This document shows, one piece after another, positions 38,561-58,963 of a stretch of 64,000 bases of DNA; position 1 is the first letter of the stretch; every line of letters starts with the position of its first letter. The stretch is taken from contig JBFXAY010000006.1 in assembly GCA_050183815.1 (NCBI GenBank), positions 49,208 through 113,207 on the forward strand. The letters run 5' to 3'. Both the position numbers and the translations under genes were made by a program. The DNA is from Gemmatimonadales bacterium. GTDB lineage: Bacteria; Gemmatimonadota; Gemmatimonadetes; Gemmatimonadales; GWC2-71-9. The notes beneath the pieces are model-generated. The model was not told where the DNA came from and did no database searches. It saw nothing but the letters and a program-made list of their open reading frames with translations.

Positions 38561-38791
38561 ATGCAGGTTTCGATCCAGTACTGCGTCGCCTGAAACTACG
38601 AACCGCGGGCCGCCAGGCTGGCGGCCGAACTCAAGGAGGCGTTTCCGGACGTCGATATCAAGAAGGTTCCGTCGAGCGGCGGGGTCTTCGAGGTGACGGT
38701 CGACGGGACGCTGCTGTTCTCGAAGAAGGCGCTAGGTCGGCACGCCGGGCCCGGTGAGGTGCTCGAGCTGATTCGGAGCCGGCCGCACTAG
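38561..38791 (+). CDS. SelW/SelT/SelH (Rdx) family selenoprotein, with in-frame TGA 38591-38593 read as Sec (CVAU motif)
   Basis: From ATG 38561 (GGAGGG SD): MQVSIQYCVA-U-NYEPRAARLAAELKEAFPDVDIKKVPSSGGVFEVTVDGTLLFSKKALGRHAGPGEVLELIRSRPH-TAG. This matches the Rdx fold signature (CxxU near the N-terminus, FEV.V.G.L.FSK). A hairpin lies 14 nt after the TGA. Confidence 0.8.
38608..38626 (+). promoter_or_regulatory. SECIS-like hairpin downstream of the Rdx TGA
   Basis: GGCCGCC-AGGCU-GGCGGCC: a 7-bp GC stem (plus a possible A-U closing pair) with a G-containing loop. Confidence 0.5.
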
Positions 38792-38806
38792 GGCGGGGGA
38801 GATCGG

Positions 38807-39952
38807 ATGCGTATCGCGATTTCGACCGGCGGCGGCGACGCTCCGGGCCTCAACGCCGTCATCCGGGCGGTCGTCCTGTCCGCGCACCAGCGCGGCTGGG
38901 AATGCTTCGGCATTCGCCGGGGATACGACGGACTCTACCGGCGGGGCGGCGGACTGCGCTACGCCTACAACAAGCCGTACGAAGGACCCGACCGCCGCCG
39001 CGAGCCGCTCGGCGGTCTCATGCCCCTCGGCCCGAAAGAGGTCCGGGGCATCACTCACCTCGGCGGCACGATTCTGGGCACCAGCAACCGGGGCAACCCG
39101 TTTTCCTGGCCGACCCGGCTCCCCGACGGATCGATCCAGGAAGTCGATCGCTCGGACGAACTGGTCGAATCCTTCCGGGCGCATGGGCTCGACGCCCTGG
39201 TGGCCATTGGCGGCGACGGCAGTCTGACCATCGCCCACGGGCTCTGGAAGAAAGGCATTCCGGTCGTCGGGGTCCCGAAGACGATCGACAATGACGTCGT
39301 CGGGACCGAGGCGACGTTCGGTTTCGACACGGCCGTGTCCACGGCGACTGAAGCGCTCGACAAGGTGCACACCACGGCGGAAAGCCACGACCGGGTCATG
39401 GTCGTCGAGCTGATGGGCCGCTATGCCGGATGGATTTCCCTCCACAGCGGTCTCTCGGGCAGCGCCGACGTCATCCTGATTCCCGAGATTCCGTTCGACA
39501 TCGACAAGGTCTGCGAGAAGATCCGGGCCCGCGAACGCGCCGGCCGCAATTTCTCGATCGTGGTCGTGGCGGAAGGGGCCCGGCCGATCGGCGGCCGCGC
39601 CGCCCTCCTCGAGGAAGCGAAGCTCGGCTCCGTCGAACGGCTCGGCGGCATGGCGGCGCAGGTGGCCGCGCTGATCTCGGAACGAACGGGCAAGGAAACC
39701 CGGAGTCTCGTCCTCGGCCACCTCCAGCGGGGCGGGTCGCCGACCACCTTCGACCGGCTGCTGGCGCTCCGCTTCGGCTCGGCCGCGGTGCGGGCCATCG
39801 GCGAGGAAGCGTTCGGCACCGTCGTGGTGTTCACCCCGCCGACGGTCAGCCGCCGTCCGATCGCCGACGTGATGGGCCGGCAGAAGACCGTGCCCCTCGA
39901 CAGCGGCATCATTCTTACCGCCCGGAACCTCGGCATCTCCTTCGGCGACTGA
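38807..39952 (+). CDS. pfkA: ATP-dependent 6-phosphofructokinase
   Basis: 381 aa. GGGDAPGLNAVIRAVV, IGGDGS, PKTIDND, MGR motifs. GDGS rather than GDDS suggests ATP dependence. Confidence 0.92.
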   Translation: MRIAISTGGGDAPGLNAVIRAVVLSAHQRGWECFGIRRGYDGLYRRGGGLRYAYNKPYEGPDRRREPLGGLMPLGPKEVRGITHLGGTILGTSNRGNPFSWPTRLPDGSIQEVDRSDELVESFRAHGLDALVAIGGDGSLTIAHGLWKKGIPVVGVPKTIDNDVVGTEATFGFDTAVSTATEALDKVHTTAESHDRVMVVELMGRYAGWISLHSGLSGSADVILIPEIPFDIDKVCEKIRARERAGRNFSIVVVAEGARPIGGRAALLEEAKLGSVERLGGMAAQVAALISERTGKETRSLVLGHLQRGGSPTTFDRLLALRFGSAAVRAIGEEAFGTVVVFTPPTVSRRPIADVMGRQKTVPLDSGIILTARNLGISFGD

Positions 39953-39961
39953 CCGCCTGCC

Positions 39962-40306
39962 TCAGGATTTCACGAAGGGAGTGGCCGGGCCCCGGAGCGA
40001 CGACCCGGGGCCCGGTTGCCAAGTGACCTGGGTTTCGATCAACGCGGCCACCTCGAGATCCTTGCCGGTGATTCCCCCGGCGCTGTGGGTCGACAGCGAG
40101 ATCGTGACGGCCGGCCAGGTCACCAGTACGTCGGCGTGGTGGTCCGCCGCCTCGCAGACGAACGCCACCGCTCCGGCCACGAGCATCGATCCGCGCCAGC
40201 CATCGGTCTCGAAGCGGCGCACGATCCGGCCGCCATCGGCCTTCCACCGGGGCAGTCCCACCAGGCCGGTGGCCAGCTCCTCCGGCGTCAGTCGCGTCTC
40301 ACTCAT
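39962..40306 (-). CDS. phhB: 4a-hydroxytetrahydrobiopterin (pterin-4a-carbinolamine) dehydratase
   Basis: Start at ATG 40306 (MSETRLTPEELA...). Signature FVCEAADHHADVLVTWPAVTISLSTHSAGG (DHHP-type motif). Confidence 0.85.
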   Translation of the reverse strand: MSETRLTPEELATGLVGLPRWKADGGRIVRRFETDGWRGSMLVAGAVAFVCEAADHHADVLVTWPAVTISLSTHSAGGITGKDLEVAALIETQVTWQPGPGSSLRGPATPFVKS

Positions 40307-40832
40307 GGGTCCTCCCTTCGGGGGCGAGTTCCGTCTCGAACCGGCCGCTCTGGCCGGGTCCTTCCTCGACGTCAACGGTGACCCGCGTGACCCCCGCCGC
40401 ACCTTCCCGGCGAAGGCCGGCTACGACCTCCCCGGTGAGGAAGCAGGCAAGGAGTTCGGCGGTCGTGTCCTGGACTGGGACGATCGCCACGTGGGCGGTG
40501 GGGAAGACGAAGCGGCGGCTCCCCCGGTAGTGAACCGCGGTGGCGTCGCCCGCCTGGTGGACCGAGACCGCGGGATTCTCGCCGGGAACCAGGACCCGGT
40601 GGTCGATCCGGTCGATCACCGGCCGGAGCACCTTCTTCACCACGGCAAAATCCACCACGAAGCCGCTCGCCTGGTCGACTGACCCTTCGACTACGACCGT
40701 GACCACGTAATTGTGGCCATGGAGGGCTTCGCACTTATGGCCGGGGATCGTCAGGAAGTGCGCGGCGGAAAAGGTCAGGTAGTCTTTCGATACCGAAACC
40801 GAGAACCGTCCGGGAAGCCGGGAACCCGTCAT
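40299..40832 (-). CDS. 6-pyruvoyl-tetrahydropterin / 6-carboxy-tetrahydropterin synthase family protein
   Basis: 177 aa. FSAAHFL...GHKCEALHGHNY (Zn-binding His residues and catalytic Cys). ATGA overlap with the MFS gene stop. Confidence 0.85.
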   Translation of the reverse strand: MTGSRLPGRFSVSVSKDYLTFSAAHFLTIPGHKCEALHGHNYVVTVVVEGSVDQASGFVVDFAVVKKVLRPVIDRIDHRVLVPGENPAVSVHQAGDATAVHYRGSRRFVFPTAHVAIVPVQDTTAELLACFLTGEVVAGLRREGAAGVTRVTVDVEEGPGQSGRFETELAPEGRTHE

Positions 40833-42157: not shown

Positions 42158-42400
42158 GGGCCGGTGCGCTCCGGCGCGATCTCTCTCGCTGTCACCACCA
42201 CCTCCTCATGACGCCGCCACCCGGTTGCCGGTGGTCGAACAACGTAGCCGCTTTGGGCACGGTTTTCCCCGGCCCGGCCTGCTCCGGCGACCGTCCCGGA
42301 CTCGGCCGGTGTCCATTTCAGGGGAATCGGCGTCCACGATTGAGGACACCATGACGGAGCTCGAAATCGTCAAGTTGTTGTCAAATAACAGCTTTGATGT

Positions 42401-42416
42401 TGGCACGCTCCTCGCA
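42401..42416 (+). promoter_or_regulatory. Sigma-54 promoter candidate (-24/-12)
   Basis: TGGCACGCTCCTCGCA against TGGCACG-N4-TTGCA. GG/GC spacing is exact, with one mismatch in the -12 box. It lies 59 nt upstream of GTG 42475 and is preceded by a 40-bp AT-rich tract containing a TCAA-N4-TTG IHF-like core. Confidence 0.6.
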
Positions 42417-42474
42417 TTTCAGCTCTTCGGAGACGAACCACAAACAGTCCGAACGACCGGACGAGGAGGCCACC

Positions 42475-42957: not shown

Positions 42958-43067
42958 CTCCCGCGCATCACAGTAGCAGTAGGGTCAGCCAACCCTTCCC
43001 TTTGAGCCCCCTTGCTCAGACCAACGGCTGATCCAGTACACCCGAGGCTCCCAGCCGAGGGTCAGGG

Positions 43068-43098
43068 CAACCCCGCGACGGCGGGGTTGTTCTGTTTT
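43068..43098 (+). terminator. Rho-independent terminator
   Basis: CAACCCCGC-GACG-GCGGGGTTG, followed by TTCTGTTTTCGT. It lies 110 nt after the RD-rich gene stop. Confidence 0.65.
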
Positions 43099-43167
43099 CG
43101 TCTCCGGGCTCCCGCCGCTCGTCGCCCGGGGTGACATTTCCGCAACGCACCGTCTCGAGGTCAGGTC

Positions 43168-43791
43168 ATGGTCGGATTGCTCGCCGTCGCCGTTCTCTGT
43201 ACCGCCCCTCCGGCGGGGGCCGCCGCCGCCGATTCGCTGGCCGCTCTCTATCAGCAGGGCCGGTCGTGGACGGAGTTCCTGGCCGGGGCCAACGCCCGCC
43301 GCGACGCCTGGGTGGGCAACTATCGGGATGGCGAAGCCGACTCGGCCGCCGTCCAACGGGTCCGGCAGCTGGCGGGTCGCTGGCGGCTGCTCGTCGTAGC
43401 CGAGGACTGGTGCTCCGATTCGGTCAACACGTTGCCCTACGTCGCTCGGCTGGCCGAGGCCGGCTCCGCGCTCGAGATCCGCATCATTGGCTCGGCGGTG
43501 GGCCGCGCGGTGATGGCGAGCCACCCCACGCCGGACGGGCGAGCGGCAACGCCGACGATGATCGTCATCGACGAGGAGGGTCGCGAGGCGGGCTGTTTCG
43601 TCGAGCGTCCGGCAGCGCTGCGAGCATGGCTCGCGGCGGGCGGCGGCCGGAACAAGGCGGAGTGGTATCGCGAGGATCGCGGCCGTTCCACCGTGACCGA
43701 CCTGCTCGACCAGCTTGGAGCGGCGTCAGCGCGCCGGCTCGACGGGCCGAACCCGGACGGTGAGGCCGGATACCGCTGCACCGTCCGCTGA
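43168..43791 (+). CDS. Thioredoxin-fold family protein (Thioredoxin_9-like), secreted, degenerate active site WCSDS
   Basis: 207 aa with a signal peptide. The LLVVAEDWCSDSVNTLPYVARLAE block is typical of this family. Confidence 0.7.
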   Translation: MVGLLAVAVLCTAPPAGAAAADSLAALYQQGRSWTEFLAGANARRDAWVGNYRDGEADSAAVQRVRQLAGRWRLLVVAEDWCSDSVNTLPYVARLAEAGSALEIRIIGSAVGRAVMASHPTPDGRAATPTMIVIDEEGREAGCFVERPAALRAWLAAGGGRNKAEWYREDRGRSTVTDLLDQLGAASARRLDGPNPDGEAGYRCTVR

Positions 43792-46278
43792 AGCCGCCAA
43801 GGTGAACCGCAGCGCCTCGGCGGCAAGGCCGAGGCGCTGACCGGTGGCCGGGTCGAGCGACAGCTCGTACTCGCCGGGCCGGATCCCCATCGCGTAGAAC
43901 TCCCCGTCGCTGAAGCTGACGATTCGGCGTATCTGTCCCGTGCCGAGATGCCGGAGGACCAGGGTCACGCCCGGTGCCCCGGCCGAGTCGGCGCGGAGGA
44001 CCTTGCCGTCGATGACGCCGCCGGGTGCGATGGGAATGTCGACGATGCGGTACCGATTCGGTCCCGGCTCGACCGCCACGGCAGCCCGGGTCGGGACCCA
44101 GAGCGGTGAGGCGAGCGTGGCCGAGTCGACCGCCACCACGGCCGGTTCATAGGGCGTGACGTTCCAGAGGCGATACTCGCCCCGCGCGTCGGAGACCCGG
44201 GTTTCGAGGCCGACGCTTACCCGGACGTTGGGAAGCAGGGGTTCGCCGTCGTCGAGGCGTTCGTTGCCGTTCTCGTCGAGGAACACCCGCCCGGCGACGC
44301 CCGCGCGCTCGACGGAGGGACCGGCCGAGAGTTGGACCCGGCCGGCCTGGCGGTCGAGCAGGACCGAGCCCTGGACGTACTGGCTCGCGGTCGTGCCGGT
44401 CCGGCGGGCCGCCATCGTCGCGAACGCCCGCACCGTCTGGAGGTTGGCGGCGACGTTGACGCTGAGCAGCGGACCCTGCAGGGCGCTCCACCCGCCACCG
44501 GCCTCGAGCCGCACCGAGCGGGAGAGATTCCGGCCGGCGAAGACCGTGACGGCCGACGGCCGGAGTGACGACTCGGCCTCGACGAAGAAGCGCGCGGTGG
44601 CGGCGCCGAGCACCGGTCCGAGGCTGCGGAGCGGAAGCAGATAGCCGTTGACCTCGAAGCTGGTCCGCCGCGCCGGGCCGCCGCCCGCCCCGCGCTGCCA
44701 TCGCACGGCCGGCAGCAGTTGCAGTTCGTGGTATTGAACGGCACCGCCGAGGCGTCCGCTCGTCAGCGTCCCGGTTTCCGTTCTGATCAGATCGACGCCG
44801 CCCTCCACGAACCAGTCGCCCGATCCGTCGGCGGGGCGGTAGAGGCCGGTGAACGTGACCTGCTCACGGCGGCCCGGTACGGTGACGATCGGATCCGCCA
44901 CCCCGCGGGCGAAGCGAGTGGCTTCGATGCCGAGTGCGAGGCCGACGTTGGGTTCGAACCGGAGGGCGGTCCGCGCGATCGCATGGCCCACCACCTCGGC
45001 TTGTACGCCGAAGGCGTTGCCCACCGAGCCGACGATCCCCGCGTATGGGTGGAAGAGGTTGCCCACGGAATCCGGTCGCCAGAAGCGATCGAGGCCGGCC
45101 TGGGCGGTCCATCGGGTCGAGAGGCCGTAGCGGACGTCGGCGTTCGCGGTGGCATCGCAACGGTCGGTGCGGCAGGCGCCGAGCGAGGCACCGTACTCGA
45201 CCCGGCCGGCGCGGACCCGGTTGGCGTCGACCCGGTGGGCCCGGCTGAAGCGGCGGACCTCGCCGAACGGTCCGTAGGCGATGAATTCGACCGCGTTCTC
45301 GCCGTAGGCGATCGGCGCGTCGATGGAGTACTGCCCGAGGGCGTTCACGGAGTCGTACGCGAGCAGGCGGCCGCCGCGGTAGGCCTCGACCTCCCAGCCG
45401 GGTCCGAGGTTTCCCGTGAAGGCGACCTCACCCAGGTCGTTGGGCCGAAGCCACGGCGCGTTGCCGATGGTAAGGCCGCGAACCGAGCGGGGCCGGGGTC
45501 CGGAGCTGACGCCGTCGCCGAGGCGGGCTTGGGCAAGCCAGGGATTGTTCCGCCAGGTCCCGGCCCAGGCGACGTCGGTGCGGGGGCCGCCGGTTGCCGC
45601 GGTGCCGCTTTGTACGGCCGCAGTGAAGGAGCCGCCGAAGAGGTCGAGGCCCAGGGCGGTCGAATAGGCAGCGTTGCGGAGGCTGGTGCCCGCGGGCGCG
45701 AACACGCCGTAGTCAACGACGAGGCCATCGATGGCGCGGCGCGGTTCGGCGAGCAGCGGGGCCTCGATCGGCCCATCCCCGCGGCTCGCCGCTGTCCGGC
45801 GACGCCACTCGCGGGTGATCCGCACGGCGAGCGGCAGCGCGGAGGGGTCGACCAGTGTGGCCGTCAGGTCGGGCCAGTTGACGTTCCAGTCACCCTGGAG
45901 GAGCTGGCCCAGGACCGTGGCGGCGAGGAACCATTCCCCGTTCTGCCGGAATAGCTGCGTGGCCGCGAACGGCCATTCCCGCTCCGCGCGACGCACGGTG
46001 CCGCGGACCGGATCGATCGTGAGCGAAACGCCCGACGGTTGCAACACGGCGACGAAGCGGTCCTCGCGAACCCGCGCCTCGACCTCGGCGAGTTCGAGTA
46101 CCGCGCCGACCGGGAGCAGGGCGTCATTGCCCTGGCGGAAGGCGGGAAGGGTACGCGAGGCGAGTCGACCGAGGGCCACCTCGAGGATCACCGGCTCGGG
46201 GGCCGAATCCCGCGCAACGCTTTGCAGCGTCAGGGGCGCGACCGGGAGGATCGCGAGGACGAAGCCGAGCGCGATCAC
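43726..46278 (-). CDS. Usher-like outer-membrane fimbrial assembly protein with C-terminal CarboxypepD_reg/SdrD-B-like Ig domains
   Basis: 850 aa. The GTG overlaps the chaperone stop (GTGA). Middle block RSVRGLTIGNAPWL...GNLGPGWEVEAYRGGRLLAYDSVNALGQYSIDAPIAYGENAVEFIAYGPFGEVRR resembles an usher plug/barrel segment. C-terminal domains RVFLDENGNERLDDGE... and GVIDGKVL.... Confidence 0.65.
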   Translation of the reverse strand: MIALGFVLAILPVAPLTLQSVARDSAPEPVILEVALGRLASRTLPAFRQGNDALLPVGAVLELAEVEARVREDRFVAVLQPSGVSLTIDPVRGTVRRAEREWPFAATQLFRQNGEWFLAATVLGQLLQGDWNVNWPDLTATLVDPSALPLAVRITREWRRRTAASRGDGPIEAPLLAEPRRAIDGLVVDYGVFAPAGTSLRNAAYSTALGLDLFGGSFTAAVQSGTAATGGPRTDVAWAGTWRNNPWLAQARLGDGVSSGPRPRSVRGLTIGNAPWLRPNDLGEVAFTGNLGPGWEVEAYRGGRLLAYDSVNALGQYSIDAPIAYGENAVEFIAYGPFGEVRRFSRAHRVDANRVRAGRVEYGASLGACRTDRCDATANADVRYGLSTRWTAQAGLDRFWRPDSVGNLFHPYAGIVGSVGNAFGVQAEVVGHAIARTALRFEPNVGLALGIEATRFARGVADPIVTVPGRREQVTFTGLYRPADGSGDWFVEGGVDLIRTETGTLTSGRLGGAVQYHELQLLPAVRWQRGAGGGPARRTSFEVNGYLLPLRSLGPVLGAATARFFVEAESSLRPSAVTVFAGRNLSRSVRLEAGGGWSALQGPLLSVNVAANLQTVRAFATMAARRTGTTASQYVQGSVLLDRQAGRVQLSAGPSVERAGVAGRVFLDENGNERLDDGEPLLPNVRVSVGLETRVSDARGEYRLWNVTPYEPAVVAVDSATLASPLWVPTRAAVAVEPGPNRYRIVDIPIAPGGVIDGKVLRADSAGAPGVTLVLRHLGTGQIRRIVSFSDGEFYAMGIRPGEYELSLDPATGQRLGLAAEALRFTLAASADGAAVSGLTVRVRPVEPAR

Positions 46279-47117
46279 GGGAGGACGACGGTCGCTTCGG
46301 TGCTGGAGGCCGCGGCCTGGACCAGTTGTTCCGGCGGAAGATCGGTGCGATCGGTGCGGAATTCGAGGCGGAGGCGGTAGCGGCCGGCGGCCGCGGTGCC
46401 GAGGGGCAGGGCGAACCGGGGTTCAGCCTCGGTGTAGATCGCGATCGGGGCCGAGAACCGGCCCGCCACGCCACCGCGTTCGTCGAGCAGCGTGCCGGAG
46501 ACGGTGCCGATGAAGGCGGCGTTGCCCTGCCGGACCAGGCGGGTCCGGACCAGCAGCGAATCGCCCTGACGTTCGGCCGTCGGCGGTTCGGCGGTGATGC
46601 CGGTCGAGACCCCGCCTTTGCGGTACTGGAGCGGGATGATGGTCCGGACCTCGAGATTCAGGCCGACCGTGATGCCGGCCGGTGCAGAGTCGGCGAGCGT
46701 GACCGGTGCCTGGCCACCCCGCGCCGTGATCATGATCCGGCTCCAGTACTCGCCGTCGGCGAGGTTGGCCGGCGGACGGCCGAGGAGCCGCACCGTCTGA
46801 CGCTCGAGGGGGCCGATGACCATTCGACGGGGGTAGGCCTCGATCCATTCTGCGGCGGAGCGGCGGTCGCCGGTTCCGGGCGGAGTGGCAAGTTCGAAGT
46901 CGCCGGCCGAGTCGGTGACCGGATAGCCGAAGAAGGTGGAGATTGAGATCTCCGCCGGTTCCGACCCGGGATTGTAGAGCGTGATCGAGGCGCTGCGGGT
47001 CCGGTGGTCGACCACCACCGCGTGCGGAGCGACGAGCACGCCCTGGGCCGCCGCCCGTTCGGGCGCGAGGCCGGCAAGCAGCCCGGCCGCGAGTACGGGG
47101 AGCAGGACGGCCTTCAT
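46275..47117 (-). CDS. PapD-like periplasmic fimbrial chaperone
   Basis: Start at ATG 47117 with a signal peptide (MKAVLLPVLAAGLLAGLAPERAAAQG). Two Ig-like halves. The block ...ITLYNPGSEPAEISIS...YPRRMVIGPLERQTVRLL resembles the chaperone 'PP.f.L.P...q.vRi' block. Confidence 0.65.
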   Translation of the reverse strand: MKAVLLPVLAAGLLAGLAPERAAAQGVLVAPHAVVVDHRTRSASITLYNPGSEPAEISISTFFGYPVTDSAGDFELATPPGTGDRRSAAEWIEAYPRRMVIGPLERQTVRLLGRPPANLADGEYWSRIMITARGGQAPVTLADSAPAGITVGLNLEVRTIIPLQYRKGGVSTGITAEPPTAERQGDSLLVRTRLVRQGNAAFIGTVSGTLLDERGGVAGRFSAPIAIYTEAEPRFALPLGTAAAGRYRLRLEFRTDRTDLPPEQLVQAAASSTEATVVLP

Positions 47118-47575
47118 CAGAAAACCGTTACCGTGAGTACGACGGTGTTGGTGTAGGTACCGACCGGCTGGTTGGCGGCCGGTTGGACCGTGCCGCCGAG
47201 CCAGATGTTCGCATCGGCGCTCGTCACCATCGTGTAGTTGACGTTGCTGTTCGGATTGAAGAATGCGGGCAGGCTCGTCGGCCCCGTGCCCTGGGCCATC
47301 GCATCGTTCGGGCCGAAGCGGATGCGCATCTGGGCCCCGCCCGGGCCATTGAGCCGGCTCGGCAGCGTGAGACGGATCCGGATCCGGGTCCCGATGCCCG
47401 GTGTGCTGAAGTAGAATTGACCACTGCGGACCGGGTCGGTCGGGCTGACCGATTGGTCGACTCCCTGGAGCACGGGACCGAAATCCAGATCGCGGACGCC
47501 CTGCACGACCAGCTGCGCCGAACACGGCGCAGCGGTCATGACGAGGGTCAGCAGAGCGAGACTCGATCTCGGCAT
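47117..47575 (-). CDS. Csu/SCPU- or DUF4402-like fimbrial subunit 2
   Basis: Start at ATG 47575 with a signal peptide. DLDFGPVLQG near the N-terminus and a C-terminal GTYTNTVVLTVTVF signature. The stop overlaps the chaperone start (TGATG). Confidence 0.7.
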   Translation of the reverse strand: MPRSSLALLTLVMTAAPCSAQLVVQGVRDLDFGPVLQGVDQSVSPTDPVRSGQFYFSTPGIGTRIRIRLTLPSRLNGPGGAQMRIRFGPNDAMAQGTGPTSLPAFFNPNSNVNYTMVTSADANIWLGGTVQPAANQPVGTYTNTVVLTVTVF

Positions 47576-47667
47576 CGGGGCGTGGTGCGCTCGGGTCGGG
47601 CCCGGGCGGACTGCCGGCAAACATAGTCAGCACCCGCCGGGCGCGAGCCGGAGCAGGATCCCAGGCC

Positions 47668-48180
47668 TTAGAAGTACGTCAGGGTCATCGTCACCGTGTT
47701 GGTGTACGTCCCGACGGCCTGACCGGCCGCGGGCGACACCGTGGCGCCGACGAACACCCAGAGCCGGCCGGTACCGGTCACGTTGCCGAAGCTCGTGGCC
47801 GTAGTGCCCGCCATGTTGGCGATGGCGGTGCAGCCGCTGGTGTTGACGGCCGCCGCCTGGTTGTAGCAGCCGGTCCAGGTGCCGATCGGCAGGTTGTTCG
47901 CCCCGTTCACGAGGTTCGCCGGCAGCGTGAAGTTGATGTTGACCGGTGCGTTGACCGTGCCGGTCGCGTCGAACCGGCCGGCCGCGGCCGCGGTCGAGGC
48001 GATCGTGGCGGGCGTGCCCTGGAGCACGATGCCGAAGTCGAGGTCCTGGCCGGCCGCGATCGTGATCGGCTGGCGGACGACGGCTCGGGCGTTGATGGTG
48101 CCGTTGGTCTGGGCGGCAGCCGCGGAGGCCAGGCTCAAGCCGGCGGCGACAGCGACCGATACTCGGGTGAAGATACGCAT
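47668..48180 (-). CDS. Csu/SCPU- or DUF4402-like fimbrial subunit 1 (likely the major subunit)
   Basis: Start at ATG 48180 (MRIFTRVSVAVAAGLSLASAAAAQ). DLDFGIVLQG and a C-terminal GTYTNTVTMTLTYF. It is a paralogue of 47117-47575. Confidence 0.75.
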   Translation of the reverse strand: MRIFTRVSVAVAAGLSLASAAAAQTNGTINARAVVRQPITIAAGQDLDFGIVLQGTPATIASTAAAAGRFDATGTVNAPVNINFTLPANLVNGANNLPIGTWTGCYNQAAAVNTSGCTAIANMAGTTATSFGNVTGTGRLWVFVGATVSPAAGQAVGTYTNTVTMTLTYF

Positions 48181-48811: not shown

Positions 48812-49711
48812 ATGACGGACCGGGAAAACCATCTCGATGTCCTGGAGGCGGAGGCGGTTTTCGTCCTGCGGGAAGTGGCGGCCGAGGTGGAACGGGCCGC
48901 CCTGCTGTTTTCGGGGGGCAAGGATTCCACGGTCCTCCTGCACCTGGCCCGGAAGGCGTTCGCGCCCGCGCGGGTTCCGTTCGCCCTTCTGCATGTCGAT
49001 ACCGGACACAACTTCGACGAGGTGATCGCGTTCCGGGACATGGTCGCCCGGGGGCACCGGCTGATGGTTGCGTCGGTGCAGGACTCGATCGATGCCGGCC
49101 GGGTTCGCGAGGAGCGTGGGCCCCGGAGCAGCCGCAACCGGCTCCAGTCGGTCACCCTCCTCGATGCAGTGGCGGAGCACCGGCTGGGCGCCCTGATCGG
49201 CGGCGCACGGCGCGACGAGGACAAGGCCCGGGCCAAGGAGCGGGTGGCGAGCATCCGGGACGAGTTCGGGCAGTGGAATCCCCGCCAGCAGCGGCCGGAA
49301 CTCTGGCAACTCTACAATCTCCGCCATCGGGCCTCGGAGCACCTTCGGATCTTTCCGCTCTCCAACTGGACCGAGCTGGACGTCTGGCGGTATGTGGAAC
49401 GGGAAGGGATCGAGCTGCCGTCGCTCTACTTTGCGCACCGGCGCGAGGTGTTCCGGCGGGACGGGATGTGGTTCGCCGCGATCGCGGCGGTCGAGCGGCT
49501 GCCGGGAGAGGTCGTGGAGACGCGGAGCGTGCGGTTCCGGACCGTCGGGGACGCCACCTGCACCGGCGCGGTCGAATCGGAGGCTGCTACCGTTGCGGCG
49601 GTGATCGCCGAGATCGCCGCCTCGCGCCTGACGGAACGGGGTGCCACCCGGGCCGACGACCGGATCAGCGACGCGGGGATGGAAGACCGGAAGCGCGAGG
49701 GGTACTTCTGA
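48812..49711 (+). CDS. cysD: Sulfate adenylyltransferase subunit 2
   Basis: Start at ATG 48812. PAPS-reductase-fold P-loop FSGGKDS and conserved ...HVDTGHNF..., ...WNPRQQRPELW... blocks. Confidence 0.93.
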   Translation: MTDRENHLDVLEAEAVFVLREVAAEVERAALLFSGGKDSTVLLHLARKAFAPARVPFALLHVDTGHNFDEVIAFRDMVARGHRLMVASVQDSIDAGRVREERGPRSSRNRLQSVTLLDAVAEHRLGALIGGARRDEDKARAKERVASIRDEFGQWNPRQQRPELWQLYNLRHRASEHLRIFPLSNWTELDVWRYVEREGIELPSLYFAHRREVFRRDGMWFAAIAAVERLPGEVVETRSVRFRTVGDATCTGAVESEAATVAAVIAEIAASRLTERGATRADDRISDAGMEDRKREGYF

Positions 49712-50982
49712 TGGACCTCCTCCGCCTCGCCACGGCCGGCTCGGTCGATGACGGCAAGAGCACTCTGATCGGCCGCCTCCTCTTCGACACCCGTCAGATC
49801 CTCGACGACCAGCTCGCGGCGGTCGAACAGAGCAGCCGGGAGCGGGGCTTCGACTACGTCAACCTGGCGCTGCTGACCGACGGTCTCCGGGCCGAGCGGG
49901 AGCAGGGGATCACGATCGACGTCGCGTACCGGTATTTCGCGACGCCGCGGCGGAAGTTCATCATCGCGGATACGCCGGGACACGTGCAGTACACCCGGAA
50001 CATGGTCACCGGCGCCTCGACCGCGGATGTGGCGCTGGTGCTGGTCGATGCGCGGAAGGGACTGGTCGAGCAGTCCCGCCGCCACGCGCTGATCGCGTCG
50101 CTCCTCGGGGTGCGGCATCTCGTGGTCTGCGTCAACAAGATGGATCTGGTGGACTATTCCGCCTCAGTTTTCGACGCGATCCGGGAGGAATTCGGCCGGT
50201 TCGCCGCCCGGCTCGAATTCGGTGACGTCGTCTTTGTCCCGATTGCGGCGCTGCACGGCGACAACGTGGCCGAGAAGTCGGACCGGATGCCGTGGTACGA
50301 GGGACCGAGCCTGCTCTGGCATCTCGAGAACGTGTACATCGCGTCGGACCGGAACCTCATCGATGCCCGGTTCCCGGTGCAGGGCGTGATCCGGCCGATG
50401 ACGGGCGAACACCACGACTATCGGGGCCTCACGGGTCAGGTCGTGGCCGGGGTGTTTCGTCCCGGCGACGAGATCATGGTGCTGCCGGCCCGCCAAGTGA
50501 CCCGGATCGCCGGCATCGACCTGGGAGGGCAGCCGCGCGACGAGGTCCGCGCGCCGGTCTCCGCCACACTGCGGCTGGCGGACGACCTCGACGTCGGCCG
50601 GGGGGATCTGATCTGCCGGCCGAACAACGCCCCGGAGGTGAGTCAGGCCGTTGAAGCGATGGTGTGCTGGTTCAGCGACCGGCCGATGACGGGCGGCGCC
50701 ACGTACACGCTCAAGCACACGACGCGGTCGGCCCGGGCCCGGATCGACACGCTCCGGTACCGGCTCAACGTCAACTCACTCTCGCGGGAGGAAGGCGCCC
50801 CCGAACTCGGTCTCAACGACATCGGCCGGGTGCTGCTCCGCACGGCGACCCCGATCTGCTACGACGAGTATCGCCGCAACCGGGCCACCGGGAGTTTCAT
50901 TCTCATCGACGAGACGACCCTGGACACCGTCGGCGCCGGGATGATCATCGGGCCGGCGGTGGAATCGGCCGGGTCGCCGTAG
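49711..50982 (+). CDS. cysN: Sulfate adenylyltransferase subunit 1 (GTPase), with no fused APS kinase
   Basis: The ATG at 49711 overlaps the cysD stop. G1 GSVDDGKST, G3 DTPGH, G4 NKMD. 423 aa. Confidence 0.93.
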   Translation: MDLLRLATAGSVDDGKSTLIGRLLFDTRQILDDQLAAVEQSSRERGFDYVNLALLTDGLRAEREQGITIDVAYRYFATPRRKFIIADTPGHVQYTRNMVTGASTADVALVLVDARKGLVEQSRRHALIASLLGVRHLVVCVNKMDLVDYSASVFDAIREEFGRFAARLEFGDVVFVPIAALHGDNVAEKSDRMPWYEGPSLLWHLENVYIASDRNLIDARFPVQGVIRPMTGEHHDYRGLTGQVVAGVFRPGDEIMVLPARQVTRIAGIDLGGQPRDEVRAPVSATLRLADDLDVGRGDLICRPNNAPEVSQAVEAMVCWFSDRPMTGGATYTLKHTTRSARARIDTLRYRLNVNSLSREEGAPELGLNDIGRVLLRTATPICYDEYRRNRATGSFILIDETTLDTVGAGMIIGPAVESAGSP

Positions 50983-52345: not shown

Positions 52346-52347
52346 CG

Positions 52348-52890
52348 CTACCGCTCCGACTCGAGTTCGACCCCGAGGCCGTCCGCGATCCGGTTGACGT
52401 ACGCGAAGTAGGCGACGATCACGCAGGCGTCGTGGATGGCCCGGTCGTCGAGGCCCGCGGTCCGGAGCGCGACGATATCGCCCGCGGTGACGCCGGCGGG
52501 CCGCTGCGTGAGCCGCTCAGCGTAGCGCACGAGCGCTTGTTCGGCGGGATCCAGGTCGGCGGCCGCGGCCGCGGCCTCGGTCTGGAGGGCGGCCACCAGG
52601 GCGTCCTGCCGGTCCTTCGGCAGTCCCTCCGCGGCGAGCAGCTGACGGAGACCCGCTCCGTGGTGGTGAATTCAATACCGGCATTCGTTGAGCGCCGACA
52701 CCCGGACCGCGAGAATTTCGCGGGTCCGCCGGGACAACGGGCCGGGCCCGTGCATGGCCGTGCGGTAAAGGTCGAAGTGGTTGCGCATCGCCGCCGGGTG
52801 AATGGCGTGGATCTGGATGATGTTGTCCGGATCGGGCACCCGGGCTTCGGGGTCCAGCTCGGAATCGGGGCGATAACGGATGAAAGCCAT
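52348..52890 (-). CDS. AhpD/carboxymuconolactone-decarboxylase-family peroxidase-related selenoprotein, with in-frame TGA 52674-52672 read as Sec (CRYU motif)
   Basis: Two same-frame track ORFs (52672-52890 and 52348-52596) join through a single TGA: ...ILAVRVSALNECRY-U-IHHHGAGLRQLLAAEGLPKDRQDALVAALQTE... The TGA sits at the second Cys of the family N.C.YC...H motif. A hairpin lies 11 nt downstream. Confidence 0.8.
52645..52661 (-). promoter_or_regulatory. SECIS-like hairpin downstream of the AhpD-like TGA
   Basis: Minus-strand RNA ACGGAG-CGGGU-CUCCGU: a 6-bp stem with a 5-nt G/U loop, starting 11 nt after the UGA. Confidence 0.5.
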
Positions 52891-52980
52891 GGCGGGACGG
52901 TTCGGGTTCCGTGGAAACTAGTCCCCATCGGGGCCTTCGCCTACCTTCCCGTCTCTCTCCTTCCGACTCGAGGCACTCCG

Positions 52981-53502
52981 ATGACCAGACTGCTGGCGCT
53001 CGTGGTACTTGGCGCGGTGCTTCCGGCGACCGTGGCAGCGCAAGGAGCCGAGGCGCGCCTTCGGGAACTCAAGATCACCCTGCCCGAGGTCGCTCCGCCG
53101 CTGGCCAATTACCTGCCGGCCGTCCGGTCCGGAAACCTTGTGTTCCTGGCGGGGCACGGCCCGGCGCAGCCCTGGGGGCCGACGGCCACGGGAAAGGTCG
53201 GCCGCGACCTCACGGTGGAGCAGGGCTACGAGGCGGCGCGCAACGTCGGGATCAACTTGCTGGCCTCGCTCAAGGCCGAGGTCGGCAGCCTCGACAAGGT
53301 CAGGCGGATCGTGAAGGTGCTGGGGATGGTCAACTCCGCCGAGGGTTTCGGCCAGCAGCCCGAGGTGATCAACGGGTTTTCCGATCTCATGGTGTCGGTC
53401 TTCGGGCCGCGCGGCAAACACGCCCGCTCGGCCGTGGGCATGGCGGCGCTGCCGCGCGGCCTGTCGGTCGAGATCGAGATGATCGTCGAAGTCGAGCCGT
53501 AG
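52981..53502 (+). CDS. RidA/YjgF/L-PSP family protein with an N-terminal signal peptide
   Basis: Start at ATG 52981 (MTRLLALVVLGAVLPATVAAQG). C-terminal RSAVGMAALPRGLSVEIEMIVEV signature. Confidence 0.85.
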   Translation: MTRLLALVVLGAVLPATVAAQGAEARLRELKITLPEVAPPLANYLPAVRSGNLVFLAGHGPAQPWGPTATGKVGRDLTVEQGYEAARNVGINLLASLKAEVGSLDKVRRIVKVLGMVNSAEGFGQQPEVINGFSDLMVSVFGPRGKHARSAVGMAALPRGLSVEIEMIVEVEP

Positions 53503-56091: not shown

Positions 56092-56143
56092 GCAGGGCCG
56101 GCGTCGTCTCCCAGCCACGGGCAATGACACCAAGGAGCGGCAG

Positions 56144-57631
56144 ATGAGTGCGCGACCCCTCATGAGAACCCCGGCCGGTTGGGCCGCCTCGCTGGCCGGA
56201 TCGGTGATCCTGGCCGGGTGCGCCGGCGGGGCCTCGATGCCGGCGGCCGATGCCGCCCGAATGAACCGGATCGTCGGCAATCTCCGGCCACCGGTCGTCG
56301 TCGAAGGCACGACCCCGGCGACCTATCGGCTCGACGACCGACTCGCCCGTCATCGTGTGCCCGGTGTCTCGATTGCCGTGGTGGACAGCGGCCGGATCGT
56401 GTGGGCCCACGGCTTCGGCCTCAAGGAAGCCGGCACCGCCGACTCGGTGACCGCGGCCACGCTGTTCCAGGCGGCCTCGATCTCGAAGCCGGTCACCGCG
56501 ACCGCGATGCTGCGACTCGTCGAGCAAGGCACGCTGTCGCTGGACGAACCGGTGAATCGTTATCTCAAGTCGTGGCAGGTCCCCGAGAACCGCTTCACCG
56601 CGCTGGCCCCGGTTACGCTCCGGCGGATCGTCAGTCACTCTGCCGGCCTCACGGTACACGGCTTTCCCGGCTACGCCGTCACCGACTCGATTCCCTCCGT
56701 CGGGCAAGTTCTCGACGGGCTCAAGCCGGCCAACACGGCCCCGGTGCGGGTCGACACGGTTCCCGGCGCGATCTGGCGCTATTCGGGTGGCGGCACCACG
56801 GTGATGCAGCTGCTCCTGACGGATGTGACCGGCGAGGCGTTCCCCGCGCTCATGCAGCGGCTCGTGCTCGGCCCCGTGGGCATGACCTCGAGCGGCTACG
56901 ACCAGCCGCTGCCCGAGGCTCGGCGGGGCGTGGAGTCGGCGGCGCACGATCGCACCGGCGCCGTGATTGCGGGCCGCTGGCATGTCTATCCCGAAATGGC
57001 GGCCGCCGGTCTCTGGACCACGCCGACGGATCTGCTCAGATGGGCCATGGCCATCGCGGCGGCGAGGGCCGGCCGCGATTCGTCGCTGCTGTCGCCCCGG
57101 ATGGCCACCGCAATGCTCACGCTGCAGCACGGCACCTCCGGTCTTGGCCCGATGCTCACCGGGGCCGGCCGCTCGTTCCGGTTCGGCCACGGGGGAGCCA
57201 ACGAGGGTTTCCGCTGCGATCTGGTCTATTTCCCCGAGACCGGGCAAGGTGCTGCCGTGATGAGCAACGGCGACAACGGCGGGGCCCTGGTTCAGGAGGT
57301 GATGCTCGCGATCGCGGCGGAGTACGGGTGGCCCGACTACGGACCGAAGAAGCTCACGCTGATTTCCCGGCCGGCGAGCGAGTTCGCGCCGTTCCTGGGC
57401 CGGTTCTCGATCACCGAACCGCAGGCGGTCACCATCGAGGTCAGCGCCGACGGCGACAAGTTGTTCGTCGAAGCGGCGGGTGTCATGCCGCGGTCCGAGG
57501 TCGGTTTCGTTGCAGCCGACCGGGTTGCGAGTCTCGAGTCGGGCGACGAATTGACGTTCGTGCTCGACCGCCGCGGTGCCGCGAGCGCGATTCGCTTCGC
57601 GGGTTACACCTTCGAGCGGGACCGGCGGTGA
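56144..57631 (+). CDS. Serine hydrolase (class C beta-lactamase / PBP4*-like family), lipoprotein
   Basis: Start at ATG 56144 (AGGAG SD), lipobox LAGC, and the S-x-x-K motif ASISKPVT. Confidence 0.88.
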   Translation: MSARPLMRTPAGWAASLAGSVILAGCAGGASMPAADAARMNRIVGNLRPPVVVEGTTPATYRLDDRLARHRVPGVSIAVVDSGRIVWAHGFGLKEAGTADSVTAATLFQAASISKPVTATAMLRLVEQGTLSLDEPVNRYLKSWQVPENRFTALAPVTLRRIVSHSAGLTVHGFPGYAVTDSIPSVGQVLDGLKPANTAPVRVDTVPGAIWRYSGGGTTVMQLLLTDVTGEAFPALMQRLVLGPVGMTSSGYDQPLPEARRGVESAAHDRTGAVIAGRWHVYPEMAAAGLWTTPTDLLRWAMAIAAARAGRDSSLLSPRMATAMLTLQHGTSGLGPMLTGAGRSFRFGHGGANEGFRCDLVYFPETGQGAAVMSNGDNGGALVQEVMLAIAAEYGWPDYGPKKLTLISRPASEFAPFLGRFSITEPQAVTIEVSADGDKLFVEAAGVMPRSEVGFVAADRVASLESGDELTFVLDRRGAASAIRFAGYTFERDRR

Positions 57632-58611
57632 GCGACGCCGGCCCGGTCCCGACGCTCGAGGCCCTGACGCCGGAGTGTCTCGCCGCGGCCCGGCAGCGGA
57701 TCGCCGGGCGGGTCGTCAGGACGCCGCTGATCCGGTGGTACGATACGACGGACGACCGCGAGGTCTGGCTCAAGCTCGAGACCCTCCAGCCGATCGGGTC
57801 GTTCAAGTTGCGCGGGGCGACGAGCGTGTTGACGTCGGTCGCGCCGGAGGTCCTGGCGGGCGGGGTCGTCACGGCGAGCGCCGGCAACATGGCGCAGGGC
57901 GTGGCCTGGGGTGCCCGCGAACTCGGCGTGCCGTGCACGGTCGTGGTACCCGACCACGCGCCGGTCACCAAGCTCAAGGCGATCGAGCGCCTGGGCGGCC
58001 GGGTCATCCGGATCGGATTCGACGCCTGGTGGCGGGTGCTCGAGGACCGCCGTTTCGAAGGTGCGCCGGGCTTCTTCGTGCACCCCGTGGCCGATACGGA
58101 GGTGATCGCCGGGAACGCCTCGATCGGATTCGAGATCGCCGAGGACCTGCCCGAGGTCGACCTGGTCCTGGTGCCGTTCGGCGGGGGCGGGCTGTCGAGC
58201 GGGATTGCCGCGGCGCTCCGGCAGGCGGCTCCGGCGGCCCGGGTGCTGGCCGTCGAGCCGGAAACCGCCGCCCCGTTCGGCGCCTCGCTCGCGGCCGGGC
58301 GGCCGGTGTCGTTCGACTACCAGCCCAGCTTCATCGACGGCTCGGGAGGCAAGAGCGTCCTGCCCGCGATGTGGCCGATCGCGCGGGCTCTGCTGGCCGG
58401 CGCGGTAGCGGTCAGCCCCGCCGAGGCGGCCGACGCCGTCCGACTGCTGGCGGAGCGGGCCCGCGTGGTGGCCGAAGGAGCCGGCGCGCTGGCACTGGCG
58501 GCGAGCCGGTCGGAGGTATCGGCCGGCCGCCGGATCGTCTGCATCGTGTCGGGCGGGAACATCGATGCGGGGCGGCTGGCCGCGATTCTCGGCGGCCAGG
58601 TCCCGCGCTGA
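57628..58611 (+). CDS. PLP-dependent threonine/serine ammonia-lyase-like enzyme (Trp-synthase beta fold)
   Basis: The GTG at 57628 overlaps the preceding stop. PLP-lysine motif GSFKLRGA and a glycine loop GGGGLSSG. Confidence 0.85.
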   Translation: MSDAGPVPTLEALTPECLAAARQRIAGRVVRTPLIRWYDTTDDREVWLKLETLQPIGSFKLRGATSVLTSVAPEVLAGGVVTASAGNMAQGVAWGARELGVPCTVVVPDHAPVTKLKAIERLGGRVIRIGFDAWWRVLEDRRFEGAPGFFVHPVADTEVIAGNASIGFEIAEDLPEVDLVLVPFGGGGLSSGIAAALRQAAPAARVLAVEPETAAPFGASLAAGRPVSFDYQPSFIDGSGGKSVLPAMWPIARALLAGAVAVSPAEAADAVRLLAERARVVAEGAGALALAASRSEVSAGRRIVCIVSGGNIDAGRLAAILGGQVPR

Positions 58612-58615
58612 GCGG

Positions 58616-58963
58616 CTACTTCACGAACTTCTCGTAGGTCTCCTGGTCGAACCCCACCAGCAGCGTCCGGCCCTTTCGTACGGTCGGCGCCCGGAGGTTT
58701 CCGCTCGGTCCGACGAGGACCGCGGCCAGGTCTGCCCGGGAAGGCTGATCCCGCTTGAGATCGAAGTGAAGCACCTTCCGGCCCTTGGTGACGTACAGGT
58801 GGTCGATGCCCTCGAGCACGGCGAGGGCCTGCTTGCCGGGAATGGTCCGCTTCTTCGCGTCCACCGTTTCGGTGACGGTGGCGTCATGCTGCGCAAGGAA
58901 CCCTTGCGTACGTTTGCAGCTGATTCACCCGGGGCGCAGGTACGCCCAATCGACTTTCGGCAT
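58616..58963 (-). CDS. ArsC/Spx/YffB-fold selenoprotein, with in-frame TGA 58927-58925 read as Sec (UISC motif)
   Basis: From ATG 58963: MPKVDWAYLRPG-U-ISCKRTQGFLAQHDATVTETVDAKKRTIPGK...LRAPTVRKGRTLLVGFDQETYEKFVK. The track ORF (58616-58864) is only the C-terminal part, in the same frame. The TGA aligns with the first Cys of the fold's N-terminal CxxC/CxxS. A hairpin lies 17 nt downstream. Confidence 0.78.
58892..58908 (-). promoter_or_regulatory. SECIS-like hairpin downstream of the ArsC-like TGA
   Basis: Minus-strand RNA CGCAAGG-GUU-CCUUGCG (or a 6-bp stem with a GGUUC loop), flanked by an outer GCUG/CAGC helix. Confidence 0.5.

Follow-up and report, generated by a model that had tools for sequence, protein, structure and literature searches.

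Three predicted selenoprotein genes with in-frame UGA codons and SECIS-type hairpins in about 20 kb of a Gemmatimonadales genome

The window, the whole 64-kb stretch of DNA analyzed here, comes from a bacterium of the Gemmatimonadales, an abundant soil lineage, and contains three small genes within about 20 kb that are each interrupted by one in-frame TGA: an Rdx/SelW-like gene (G1), an AhpD-like gene (G2), and an ArsC/Spx-like gene (G3). In all three, the TGA occupies the position of a redox cysteine and precedes a hairpin whose loop contains a G (Table 1). The reading frame is open on either side of the TGA in homologues of each gene, and the coding signal runs on through it. A preliminary description of this DNA had singled out a span whose outer coordinates, 38561 and 58963, are the start codons of G1 and G3. 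Its proposal of true recoding of the three TGAs at redox-Cys sites is upheld for CVAU, CRYU, and UISC at the places given, and its guess of a Gemmatimonadota/Acidobacteriota-like host agrees with the closest relatives, which are Gemmatimonadales MAGs.

Table 1. Positions of the three TGA-interrupted genes, their predicted recoding elements, and the adjoining phosphofructokinase gene in the window
Feature	Positions	Strand	Details
G1, Rdx/SelW-like predicted selenoprotein gene	38561..38791	+	76 aa, motif C8-V-A-U11; translation, profiles
G1, predicted Sec codon UGA	38591..38593	+	TGA in 80/80 homologous genome loci
G1, putative SECIS hairpin GGCCGCC-AGGCU-GGCGGCC	38608..38626	+	starts 14 nt after UGA; covariation
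Phosphofructokinase gene (pfk), directly 3' of G1	38807..39952	+	Pfam PFK 6.4e-104
G2, AhpD-like (COG2128/TIGR01926, CMD fold) predicted selenoprotein gene	52348..52890	-	180 aa, motif C70-R-Y-U73-x3-H (CRYUIHHH)
G2, predicted Sec codon UGA	52672..52674	-	TGA in 40/42 loci with locatable active-site motif
G2, putative SECIS hairpin ACGGAG-CGGGU-CUCCGU	52645..52661	-	starts 10 nt after UGA
G3, ArsC/Spx-like predicted selenoprotein gene	58616..58963	-	115 aa, motif U13-I-S-C16
G3, predicted Sec codon UGA	58925..58927	-	TGA in 8/8 Sec-form loci
G3, putative SECIS, upper hairpin CGCAAGG-GUU-CCUUGCG (58892-58908) on lower stem GCUGC/GCAGC	58887..58920	-	conserved in Sec forms; upper hairpin starts 16 nt after UGA

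G1 belongs to the SelT/SelW/SelH (Rdx) family, as a full-length match above curated cutoffs with an N-terminal CxxU motif. It scores 77.9 bits against Pfam Rdx (PF10262; 6.7e-22, cutoff 22.6), 101.3 bits against NF041051, "SelT/SelW/SelH family (seleno)protein" (cutoff 88), and 71.5 bits against TIGR02174 (cutoff 34.2). The nearest solved structure is that of Atu0228 (2fa8), in which the second cysteine of the CxxC motif aligns with U11. A ribosome-binding site, GGAGGG, is located 5 nt 5' of the ATG. The homologous loci, all with TGA, span Gemmatimonadota, Acidobacteriota, Planctomycetota, Desulfobacterota, Myxococcota, and Actinomycetota, and Sec forms are likewise reported to outnumber Cys forms in the Rdx/SelW family (PMC1794560). 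In the alignment of the stem, 94.8% of cells are paired and compensatory changes are observed in five of the seven pairs, values reached by none of 500 shuffles; shifted registers drop to 18–63% paired. The G and U of the loop are invariant, and the loop contains AGG, which makes up 1.6% of the Arg codons of the window. Similar to known SelW-like/Rdx bacterial selenoproteins, G1 encodes about 75 residues with an N-terminal CxxU and a putative SECIS directly past the UGA. There is no essential difference from that family; the particulars of G1 are its lineage, Gemmatimonadales, and its tight pairing with the downstream pfk gene.

G2 matches Pfam CMD (PF02627; 4.8e-12, 46.1 bits, cutoff 23) and TIGR01926, "peroxidase-related enzyme" (111.8 bits, cutoff 81.8), and this above-cutoff profile match, combined with a CxxUxxxH motif in the CMD fold, places it in the latter family. 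It lies outside the NCBI AhpD-type model NF041238, "AhpD_rel_CFYUT (seleno)protein," which it matches only in part of 357 positions and with a score of 66 bits (cutoff 175); the names carried by the G2 subgroup at NCBI are "hypothetical protein" or "peroxidase." The published AhpD-like Sargasso Sea family (Zhang et al. 2005, PMC1088965) has a CxxU motif, as does G2, where it sits in a CMD/AhpD fold and is followed by His. Solved homologues are 3c1l, 6k40, and 2oyo, and in the alignment with 3c1l, the only one printed, CRYUIHHH is matched with CYYCLTAH. Cys-form homologues carry CRYC or CAYC, and U73 aligns with a cysteine in the homologues P0129, P0130, L122, and L125.

The 42 loci compared for G2 are those in which the active-site motif is located, including the window itself and the sister locus L001; the two without TGA carry TGC or TGT, and both of these Cys forms are devoid of the hairpin. 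Every Sec-form homologue of G2 has a 5–8-bp hairpin with a G-containing loop, offset by 12–18 from the U of the UGA. The arms of this hairpin vary by subgroup (for example, ACGGAG/CUCCGU, GCGGCGG/CCGCCGC, UGGGGAG/CUCCUCA, and CCGCCGCG/UGCGGCGG) and its register moves by a few nucleotides from one subgroup to another, with the position and the G-loop constant. The hairpin of G2 includes the rare codons GGA (8.6%), GGT (10.5%), and CGT (4.4%), and it is absent from the minimum-energy fold of the 60-mer.

G3 is a member of NF041106, "ArsC family (seleno)protein," which it matches over the full length of the model (positions 1–107 of 107; 135.9 bits, cutoff 85) with U in the N-terminal redox motif. 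The match to Pfam ArsC (1e-4, 23.0 bits) falls just below the cutoff of 24. Because the nearest solved structures are Spx regulators, and these match weakly (27 bits, with CxxC aligned with UISC), arsenate-reductase activity is not established for G3. A glutaredoxin-coupled ArsC arsenate reductase was considered and would fit poorly with the sub-cutoff Pfam match, the closeness to Spx, and the genes nearby, among which no ars genes are found; the neighbors encode a PLP-dependent enzyme and an M28 peptidase. As in NF041106 (ArsC_rel_Se_1) and the ArsC-like selenoproteins of Zhang et al. (2005, 2006), the predicted Sec of G3 is in the N-terminal redox motif, which reads UxxC in G3, whereas UxxS is reported for the Sargasso "arsenate reductase" family (PMC1088965).

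Full-length homologues of G3 carry CITC, CISC, or CKTC, and U13 aligns with a cysteine in P0002, P0006, P0008, L131, and L132. The TGA is kept in L001, L002–L005, L128, L129, and L130 and the Cys forms L131 and L132 have TGC in its place; the eight Sec-form loci include the window itself and the four near-identical loci L002–L005. The upper hairpin is present in all Sec forms, down to 55–63% protein identity, and is preserved at synonymous sites. It is disrupted in both Cys forms despite a similar peptide, in one of them at the syntenic position. Rare codons are again found in the hairpin: CAA (8.5% of Gln codons) and CTT (4.3% of Leu codons).

Comparison with the E. coli fdhF-type SECIS and its partner SelB shows that the hairpins of G1, G2, and G3 are likewise located within the coding sequence, 10–16 nt past the UGA, with a small apical loop that has a conserved G and U (GGUCU, AGGCU, CGGGU, or GUU). 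The differences are the drifting register of the G2 hairpin and the lack of an Rfam match; binding of the three hairpins by SelB is predicted. The G-loop hairpins noted in the preliminary description are of bacterial SECIS type, with stems of 6–7 bp, loops of 3–5 nt, and starts 10–16 nt after the UGA. No Rfam SECIS family is matched, and a search of the window with Rfam gave nothing at gathering thresholds and chance matches only at E <=10; this negative carries little weight, the models being taken as narrow.

In DNA of about 70% GC, a hairpin alone is weak evidence. Among the 1283 TGA trinucleotides of the window, 9.7% are followed by a hairpin as good as that of G2, 3.5% by one as good as that of G3, and at most about 2% by one as good as that of G1. 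Folding energy was dropped as a criterion, since the z-scores of the 60-mers (-0.7, +1.0, and -1.7 for G1, G2, and G3, respectively) are unremarkable and not significant in GC-rich DNA, and covariation and codon usage were used instead. Each of the three hairpins draws on codons that this genome seldom uses. Conservation and covariation among homologues are the decisive evidence: in orthologous loci, the comparison on which the preliminary description had staked its reading, the TGA is kept and the hairpin is conserved or covaries in the Sec forms of G1, G2, and G3. In the sister genome, GCA_041390225.1, the orthologues of G2 and G3 have the gene order, TGA, and hairpins seen in the window. 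The comparison demonstrates a recoding signal together with its evolutionary conservation.

The density of such genes had been taken to mean that Sec is used widely in the genome, an extrapolation that finds no support in the flanks of relatives. When high-GC loci totalling 0.83 Mb, about 0.6 Mb of them flanks of G1 homologues, were scanned crudely, essentially no further selenoprotein candidates came up; the three genes in 20 kb are therefore a local concentration from which no extrapolation follows. Codon-score scans of the window for more genes with in-frame TGA picked up G2 and G3 and, apart from these, nothing but antisense artefacts; with no more than 10 codons ahead of its UGA, G1 goes unnoticed in such scans.

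Such a concentration could be functional, with G1, G2, and G3 forming a co-regulated or co-inherited "selenoprotein island" whose closeness is not incidental. The count of three genes in 20.4 kb, set against essentially none in about 0.6 Mb of relatives' flanks, speaks for it. So does the sister genome (contig JAWKQK010000017.1, syntenic), in which the orthologues of G2 and G3 keep their relative positions. Several observations nevertheless make an island improbable. The genes lie on different strands, and the gaps of 14 kb and 6 kb are filled by unrelated genes, which encode PFK, PTPS, an MFS transporter, a pilus-like DUF4402 cluster, CysD/CysN, a ClC channel, RidA, a helicase, a beta-lactamase-fold protein, and a PLP enzyme. 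Furthermore, the Gemmatimonadales genome L131 has a Cys-form G3 orthologue and no G2 at the syntenic site, and in none of the 80 G1 loci is a G2 or G3 homologue found within 5 kb of G1. Rather than forming a functional unit, G1, G2, and G3 sit in the midst of unrelated housekeeping genes, and their proximity is a local chromosome feature of the lineage.

A reading of the UGAs as a standard amino acid, in which a suppressor or reassigned tRNA for Trp, Gly, or Cys, or context-dependent read-through, would decode the codon with no selenium involved, is very improbable. Its support comes from database entries in which the codon of G2 is translated as W (P0121, P0124, and P0125) or R (P0134), and from the window itself, which contains no Sec machinery (none of selA, selB, selC, and selD). 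The W entries probably reflect an alternative genetic code applied by gene callers to contigs of about 1 kb. A 96-nt "tRNA-Glu" reported by ARAGORN at 1474–1569 is taken as a false positive and not as selC, being located within a histidine-kinase coding sequence and lacking Rfam support; neither tRNA-Sec nor the SelD N-terminal motif is found in the roughly 1 Mb of loci searched. Against a standard amino acid, two thirds of the window genes end in TGA (32 of the 48 genes of at least 100 aa); TGA is the main stop codon, and UGA is therefore not reassigned genome-wide. Moreover, the recoded UGAs are found solely at the catalytic cysteine of redox folds, a G-loop hairpin at SECIS spacing is the signature of SelB-dependent decoding, and NCBI curated models class G1-type and G3-type proteins as selenoproteins. 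The remaining reading puts the TGAs down to errors of sequencing or assembly or to inactivating mutations, with the genes being Cys forms or pseudogenes. It would account for the single in-frame stop per gene and for the known Cys-form homologues of G2 and G3, but its probability is negligible and it is refuted in practice by the same-codon TGA in independent assemblies (80/80 for G1, 40/42 for G2, and all Sec-form loci for G3), the intact frame on both sides, the conserved or covarying hairpin that follows, and the coding signal past the TGA.

Given the comparative data, the only reasonable reading is Sec decoding: the in-frame UGA of each gene almost certainly encodes Sec. With high confidence, G1, G2, and G3 can thus be described as three independent, functional selenoprotein genes of this Gemmatimonadales bacterium, in which UGA is predicted to be translated as Sec by way of a SECIS hairpin. 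By analogy with the E. coli fdhF paradigm, a SelB·GTP·Sec-tRNASec complex would bind the hairpin within the coding sequence, and the ribosome would insert Sec instead of terminating. The alignments of U with redox cysteines, both in the profile matches and in the CxxC motifs of the solved homologues of all three proteins, suggest that Sec takes the place of one cysteine in a CxxC-type redox center. It would replace the second cysteine in the Rdx/SelW-like G1 (CxxU) and the AhpD-like G2 (CxxUxxxH) and the first in the ArsC/Spx-like G3 (UxxC). The products should be selenol/thiol oxidoreductases with a higher reactivity than their Cys homologues, a biochemical function that we infer, as we do selABCD genes in parts of the genome outside the window.

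G1 and the pfk gene, which are 15 nt apart, are probably parts of the same operon. An Rdx-pfk pair on the same strand, separated by -10 to +100 nt, is found in 54 of 60 Gemmatimonadota loci, as compared with 1 of 20 loci from other phyla, and no mention of the pairing was found in a literature search. There is a modest chance that the adjoining phosphofructokinase has the Rdx/SelW-like selenoprotein as its dedicated regulator or redox partner. The function of bacterial SelW-like proteins was described as unclear in 2005 (PMC1088965), and such a partnership, if true, would be the first functional handle on them.

All three families are on the bacterial selenoprotein lists of 2005–2006 (Zhang et al. 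2005, PMC1088965; Zhang et al. 2006, PMC1794560), and bacterial selenoproteins number 57,630 in a 2026 database. The earlier suggestion of an under-annotated, poorly described selenoproteome does not hold overall, with the families already listed in 2005–2006 and dedicated NCBI (seleno)protein models covering G1 and G3, and survives for the G2 type only. Indeed, a Gemmatimonadales G3 orthologue of 94% identity, in the sister genome, is already named "ArsC family (seleno)protein" at NCBI. Misannotation still appears to affect G2-type proteins alone, whose NCBI entries are truncated tail fragments named "hypothetical protein" or "peroxidase." Truncation of G2 and G3 by ordinary gene callers, also foreseen, is evident from their database homologues, which are mostly tails of 102 aa and about 104 aa, respectively, that start just past the UGA; gene calling splits G2 of the sister genome into fragments of 72 and 60 aa. 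In G1, translation from the first start codon past the UGA would yield 32 aa only, a remnant short enough that a caller would probably skip it, and the gene may thus be missed entirely, as had been claimed.

Since the recognition of these families as bacterial selenoproteins dates back to 2005–2006, the find is a routine annotation gain and no discovery, and it leaves the known concepts of Sec recoding and of the families unchanged. Its practical value lies in annotation: G1, G2, and G3 need a Sec codon entry (transl_except). A modest separate point is that present annotation pipelines may systematically overlook the soil-lineage Sec subgroup of AhpD-like (TIGR01926-type) proteins. Across Gemmatimonadota, Acidobacteriota, and Planctomycetota, members of this subgroup (CxYU-x-HHH) are still deposited as truncated fragments named "hypothetical protein," and many genes would therefore be recovered by a (seleno)protein model of its own. 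No paper was found that addresses selenium incorporation in any Gemmatimonadota; mentions of the phylum together with Sec, tRNASec, or sel genes are incidental, and the phylum does not occur in the supplements of Peng et al. (2016). On the data presented here, the Gemmatimonadales, a lineage for which no selenium paper was found, must decode Sec.

Translation of the window in six frames, with TGA read as U, located the three TGA-interrupted motifs claimed in the preliminary description, all at the positions reported there (Table). Selenocysteine (Sec, U) decoding is very probably the right reading of the three TGAs. For the family searches against Pfam and NCBIfam, U was replaced by C in the query proteins. 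Among homologues of solved structure, the U motif aligns with the CxxC of the Rdx protein Atu0228 in the case of the Rdx/SelW-like gene G1, with that of Mlr4105 in the case of the AhpD-like gene G2, whose structural matches also include AhpD-type entries, and, in a weak match, with that of Spx in the case of the ArsC/Spx-like gene G3.

Table. Features of the window with their family matches, hairpins (start counted from the UGA) and neighbouring genes.
Feature	Position	Strand	Description	Pfam match	NCBIfam match	Hairpin	Neighbours
G1	38561-38791	+	MQVSIQYCVAU..., 76 aa, U11	Rdx, 6.7e-22	NF041051 'SelT/SelW/SelH family (seleno)protein', 101 bits (cutoff 88)	GGCCGCC-AGGCU-GGCGGCC, 14 nt	TSP3-repeat protein gene and pfk
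G2	52348-52890	-	...NECRYUIHHHGAG..., 180 aa, U73	CMD, 4.8e-12	TIGR01926 'peroxidase-related enzyme', 112 bits (cutoff 82)	ACGGAG-CGGGU-CUCCGU, 10 nt	ClC channel and RidA genes
G3	58616-58963	-	MPKVDWAYLRPGUISCK..., 115 aa, U13	ArsC, 1e-4, marginally under threshold	NF041106 'ArsC family (seleno)protein', 136 bits (cutoff 85)	CGCAAGG-GUU-CCUUGCG, 16 nt, atop a lower 5-bp stem	PLP-dependent enzyme and M28 peptidase genes
Rdx-pfk pair	38561-39952		gap 15 nt
Cluster between G1 and G2	43726-48180	-	850-aa CarboxypepD_reg protein; 280-aa protein without Pfam match; two DUF4402-like secreted proteins, matches just under Pfam threshold
cysD and cysN	48812-50982	+	sulfate adenylyltransferase genes, ~1.4 kb from G2
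ORF opposite G2	52432-53502	+	sole domain RidA/YjgF, from residue 207
ARAGORN call	1474-1569	-	96-nt 'tRNA-Glu(ctc)'
PAS/histidine-kinase/receiver coding sequence	242-3328		1028 aa

A hairpin is present after each UGA, as had been described from the sequence. In the window, of which ~69% is GC, a hairpin of G2 quality follows 9.7% of the 1283 TGA trinucleotides, one of G3 quality 3.5%, and one of G1 quality at most ~2%, and the 60-nt folds after the three UGAs have ordinary z-scores. Structure alone separates the three hairpins from chance only moderately, so the case for Sec has to be made from comparative data. Codon usage agrees with it, in that the hairpins draw on codons seldom used in this genome: CAA accounts for 8.5% of Gln codons, CTT for 4.3% of those for Leu, CGT and AGG for 4.4 and 1.6% of those for Arg, and GGA and GGT for 9-10% each of those for Gly. 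Genome-wide reassignment of UGA is ruled out, because TGA is the normal terminator of the window, ending 32 of the 48 genes with 100 aa or more.

Among 185,579 species-representative genomes, a search for G1 homologues yielded 80 loci, 60 of them labelled Gemmatimonadota and the others Acidobacteriota, Planctomycetota, Desulfobacterota (including the isolate Desulfopila aestuarii DSM 18488), Myxococcota, Actinomycetota, and others. TGA occupies the CxxU position in all 80. In an ungapped alignment (A1), 94.8% of the cells of the 7-bp stem are paired, five of the seven stem pairs show double (compensatory) changes, and loop nucleotides 2 (G) and 5 (U) are invariant. The observed stem values were matched by none of 500 column shuffles, and with the 3′ arm displaced by 1-3 nt, pairing fell to 18-63%.

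For G2 and G3, protein searches returned 426 and 256 matches, mostly tails of ~104 aa starting one residue after U and of 102 aa starting after U, respectively, which bears out the proposal that ORF callers truncate two of the genes. The G2-type tails, from Vicinamibacterales, Acidobacteriota, and Planctomycetota, are named 'hypothetical protein' or 'peroxidase' at NCBI. The few full-length G2 homologues carry C, W, or R at the U position; W is found in three and R (motif CFYR in the protein entry) in one of the entries P0121, P0124, P0125, and P0134, and the W residues are taken to reflect the use of an alternative genetic code in translating TGA on ~1 kb contigs. A metagenome scan yielded 42 loci, and the active-site motif could be located in 42 sequences when these were pooled with the window and the sister-genome locus L001; the active-site codon is TGA in 40 and TGC or TGT in two. 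In all of the Sec forms, a hairpin of 5-8 bp whose loop contains G starts at an offset of 12-18 from the U of UGA. Its arms differ by subgroup (ACGGAG/CUCCGU, GCGGCGG/CCGCCGC, UGGGGAG/CUCCUCA, UCGGCC/GGCCGA, and CCGCCGCG/UGCGGCGG), and thus the structure is maintained while nucleotide and peptide sequence change. No comparable hairpin is found at that site in the two Cys forms.

Full-length 115-aa matches of G3 carry CITC, CISC, or CKTC. The Sec-form DNA comes from Gemmatimonadales, Methylomirabilis-type, and Verrucomicrobia-type contigs, in which the TGA is kept and the hairpin ACGCAAGG-GUU-CCUUGCG is near-invariant at 55-67% protein identity; an A-to-G change in one locus leaves the pair intact as G·U. 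The hairpin is lost in two Cys forms that encode a near-identical peptide (KRAQGFI and KRTQEFLA).

The closest relatives of all three genes are in Gemmatimonadales metagenome-assembled genomes, and the first guess of a Gemmatimonadota/Acidobacteriota-like host was therefore correct. For G1, several Gemmatimonadales genomes encode proteins of 77-79% identity; for G3, a protein of 94% identity is encoded in GCA_041390225.1, the genome of L001, which shares the gene order from EF-G to CysD with the window and has G2 and G3 with identical TGA and hairpins. In L131, from another Gemmatimonadales metagenome-assembled genome (GCA_054606335.1), the syntenic G3 beside the M28 peptidase gene (2799-3146) has Cys at the Sec position (CITC) and lacks the SECIS hairpin, and a thioredoxin-like gene stands in place of the AhpD-like gene beside RidA (10773-13146). 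L131 shows Sec/Cys exchange and gene loss within Gemmatimonadales, as described for bacterial selenoproteomes generally (PMC1794560).

Nothing suggests that G1, G2, and G3 form a functional unit, since their neighbours are unrelated genes and they occupy both strands. The cluster that separates G1 from G2 may be a chaperone-usher-like surface-fibre locus. A ClC channel gene lies between cysD/cysN and G2, an arrangement conserved in L001. The ORF opposite G2 is a spurious long ORF, of a kind typical of 70% GC DNA; from the position of its domain and a signal-peptide-like start (MTRLLALVVLG...) at ~52984, the real gene does not overlap G2. Pfam annotation of nearly all predicted genes in the window, all but short calls and one 806-aa gene, revealed no SelA, SelB, SelD, or SelU. 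The single ARAGORN call is a false positive and not selC, lying within the PAS/histidine-kinase/receiver coding sequence and having no Rfam tRNA match.

The density of three genes in 20 kb had been taken to suggest wide use of Sec. A crude scan required a redox motif with an in-frame TGA, a GC3 coding signal to either side of it, and a hairpin; the sequence scanned was 0.83 Mb of high-GC loci, mostly flanks of G1 homologues. Many positive controls were recovered, with sensitivity estimated at between a third and a half. The scan gave essentially no further convincing selenoprotein candidates, with one exception, and the three genes are thus not representative of genome-wide density. The exception, on metagenome contig Ga0136627_1003340 (L090) at ~1051 (+), is the ORF of a CooC/ParA-like ATPase, in which the TGA falls within the motif GAGUMCGAH and precedes the hairpin ATGCCGC-GGT-GCGGCAT; an AhpD-like selenoprotein gene has this ORF ~1.5 kb upstream of it. 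None of the 80 G1 loci has a G2 or G3 homologue within 5 kb.

By the mechanism of Escherichia coli, SelB·GTP·Sec-tRNASec would bind the in-frame hairpin, and the UGA would be decoded as Sec. Sec would substitute for the second Cys of CxxC in G1, for the second Cys in G2, with a conserved His at +4, and for the first Cys in G3. The G2 site presumably corresponds, by analogy, to the second active-site Cys of Mycobacterium tuberculosis AhpD. The proteins likely function in thiol/selenol-disulfide oxidoreduction or in the detoxification of peroxides. For G3, the ArsC label should not be taken to mean arsenate reductase, because its surroundings contain no ars genes and, among solved structures, Spx regulators come closest.

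SelW-like (CxxU), AhpD-like COG2128 (CxxU), and arsenate-reductase/ArsC-like proteins were all in the Sargasso Sea selenoproteome of 2005 (PMC1088965) and also appear in the 25-family bacterial set of Zhang et al. 2006 (PMC1794560). In BSepDB (2026), 16,621 species contribute 57,630 bacterial selenoproteins, which fall into 111 families. The suggestion of an under-annotated selenoproteome holds for the G2 subgroup only, the one annotation gap documented: whereas G1 and G3 are covered by NCBI '(seleno)protein' models, G2 fails the closest AhpD-related one (NF041238; 66 bits, cutoff 175), and its subgroup is stored as fragments in public records. G1-G3 add members to selenoprotein families that are already well known and do not constitute a novel kind of feature; in the host lineage, at least one of these families is recognised in public annotation.

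Among the 80 G1 loci (L006-L085), a phosphofructokinase gene lies downstream of the G1-type gene on the same strand in 54 of the 60 Gemmatimonadota loci, at a gap of -10 to +100 nt, and such a same-strand pair occurs in only one of the 20 loci outside this phylum. A literature search combining the two terms found no paper linking selW-like genes and pfk. The pair looks like a conserved operon-like arrangement in Gemmatimonadota and is the most interesting by-product of the analysis.
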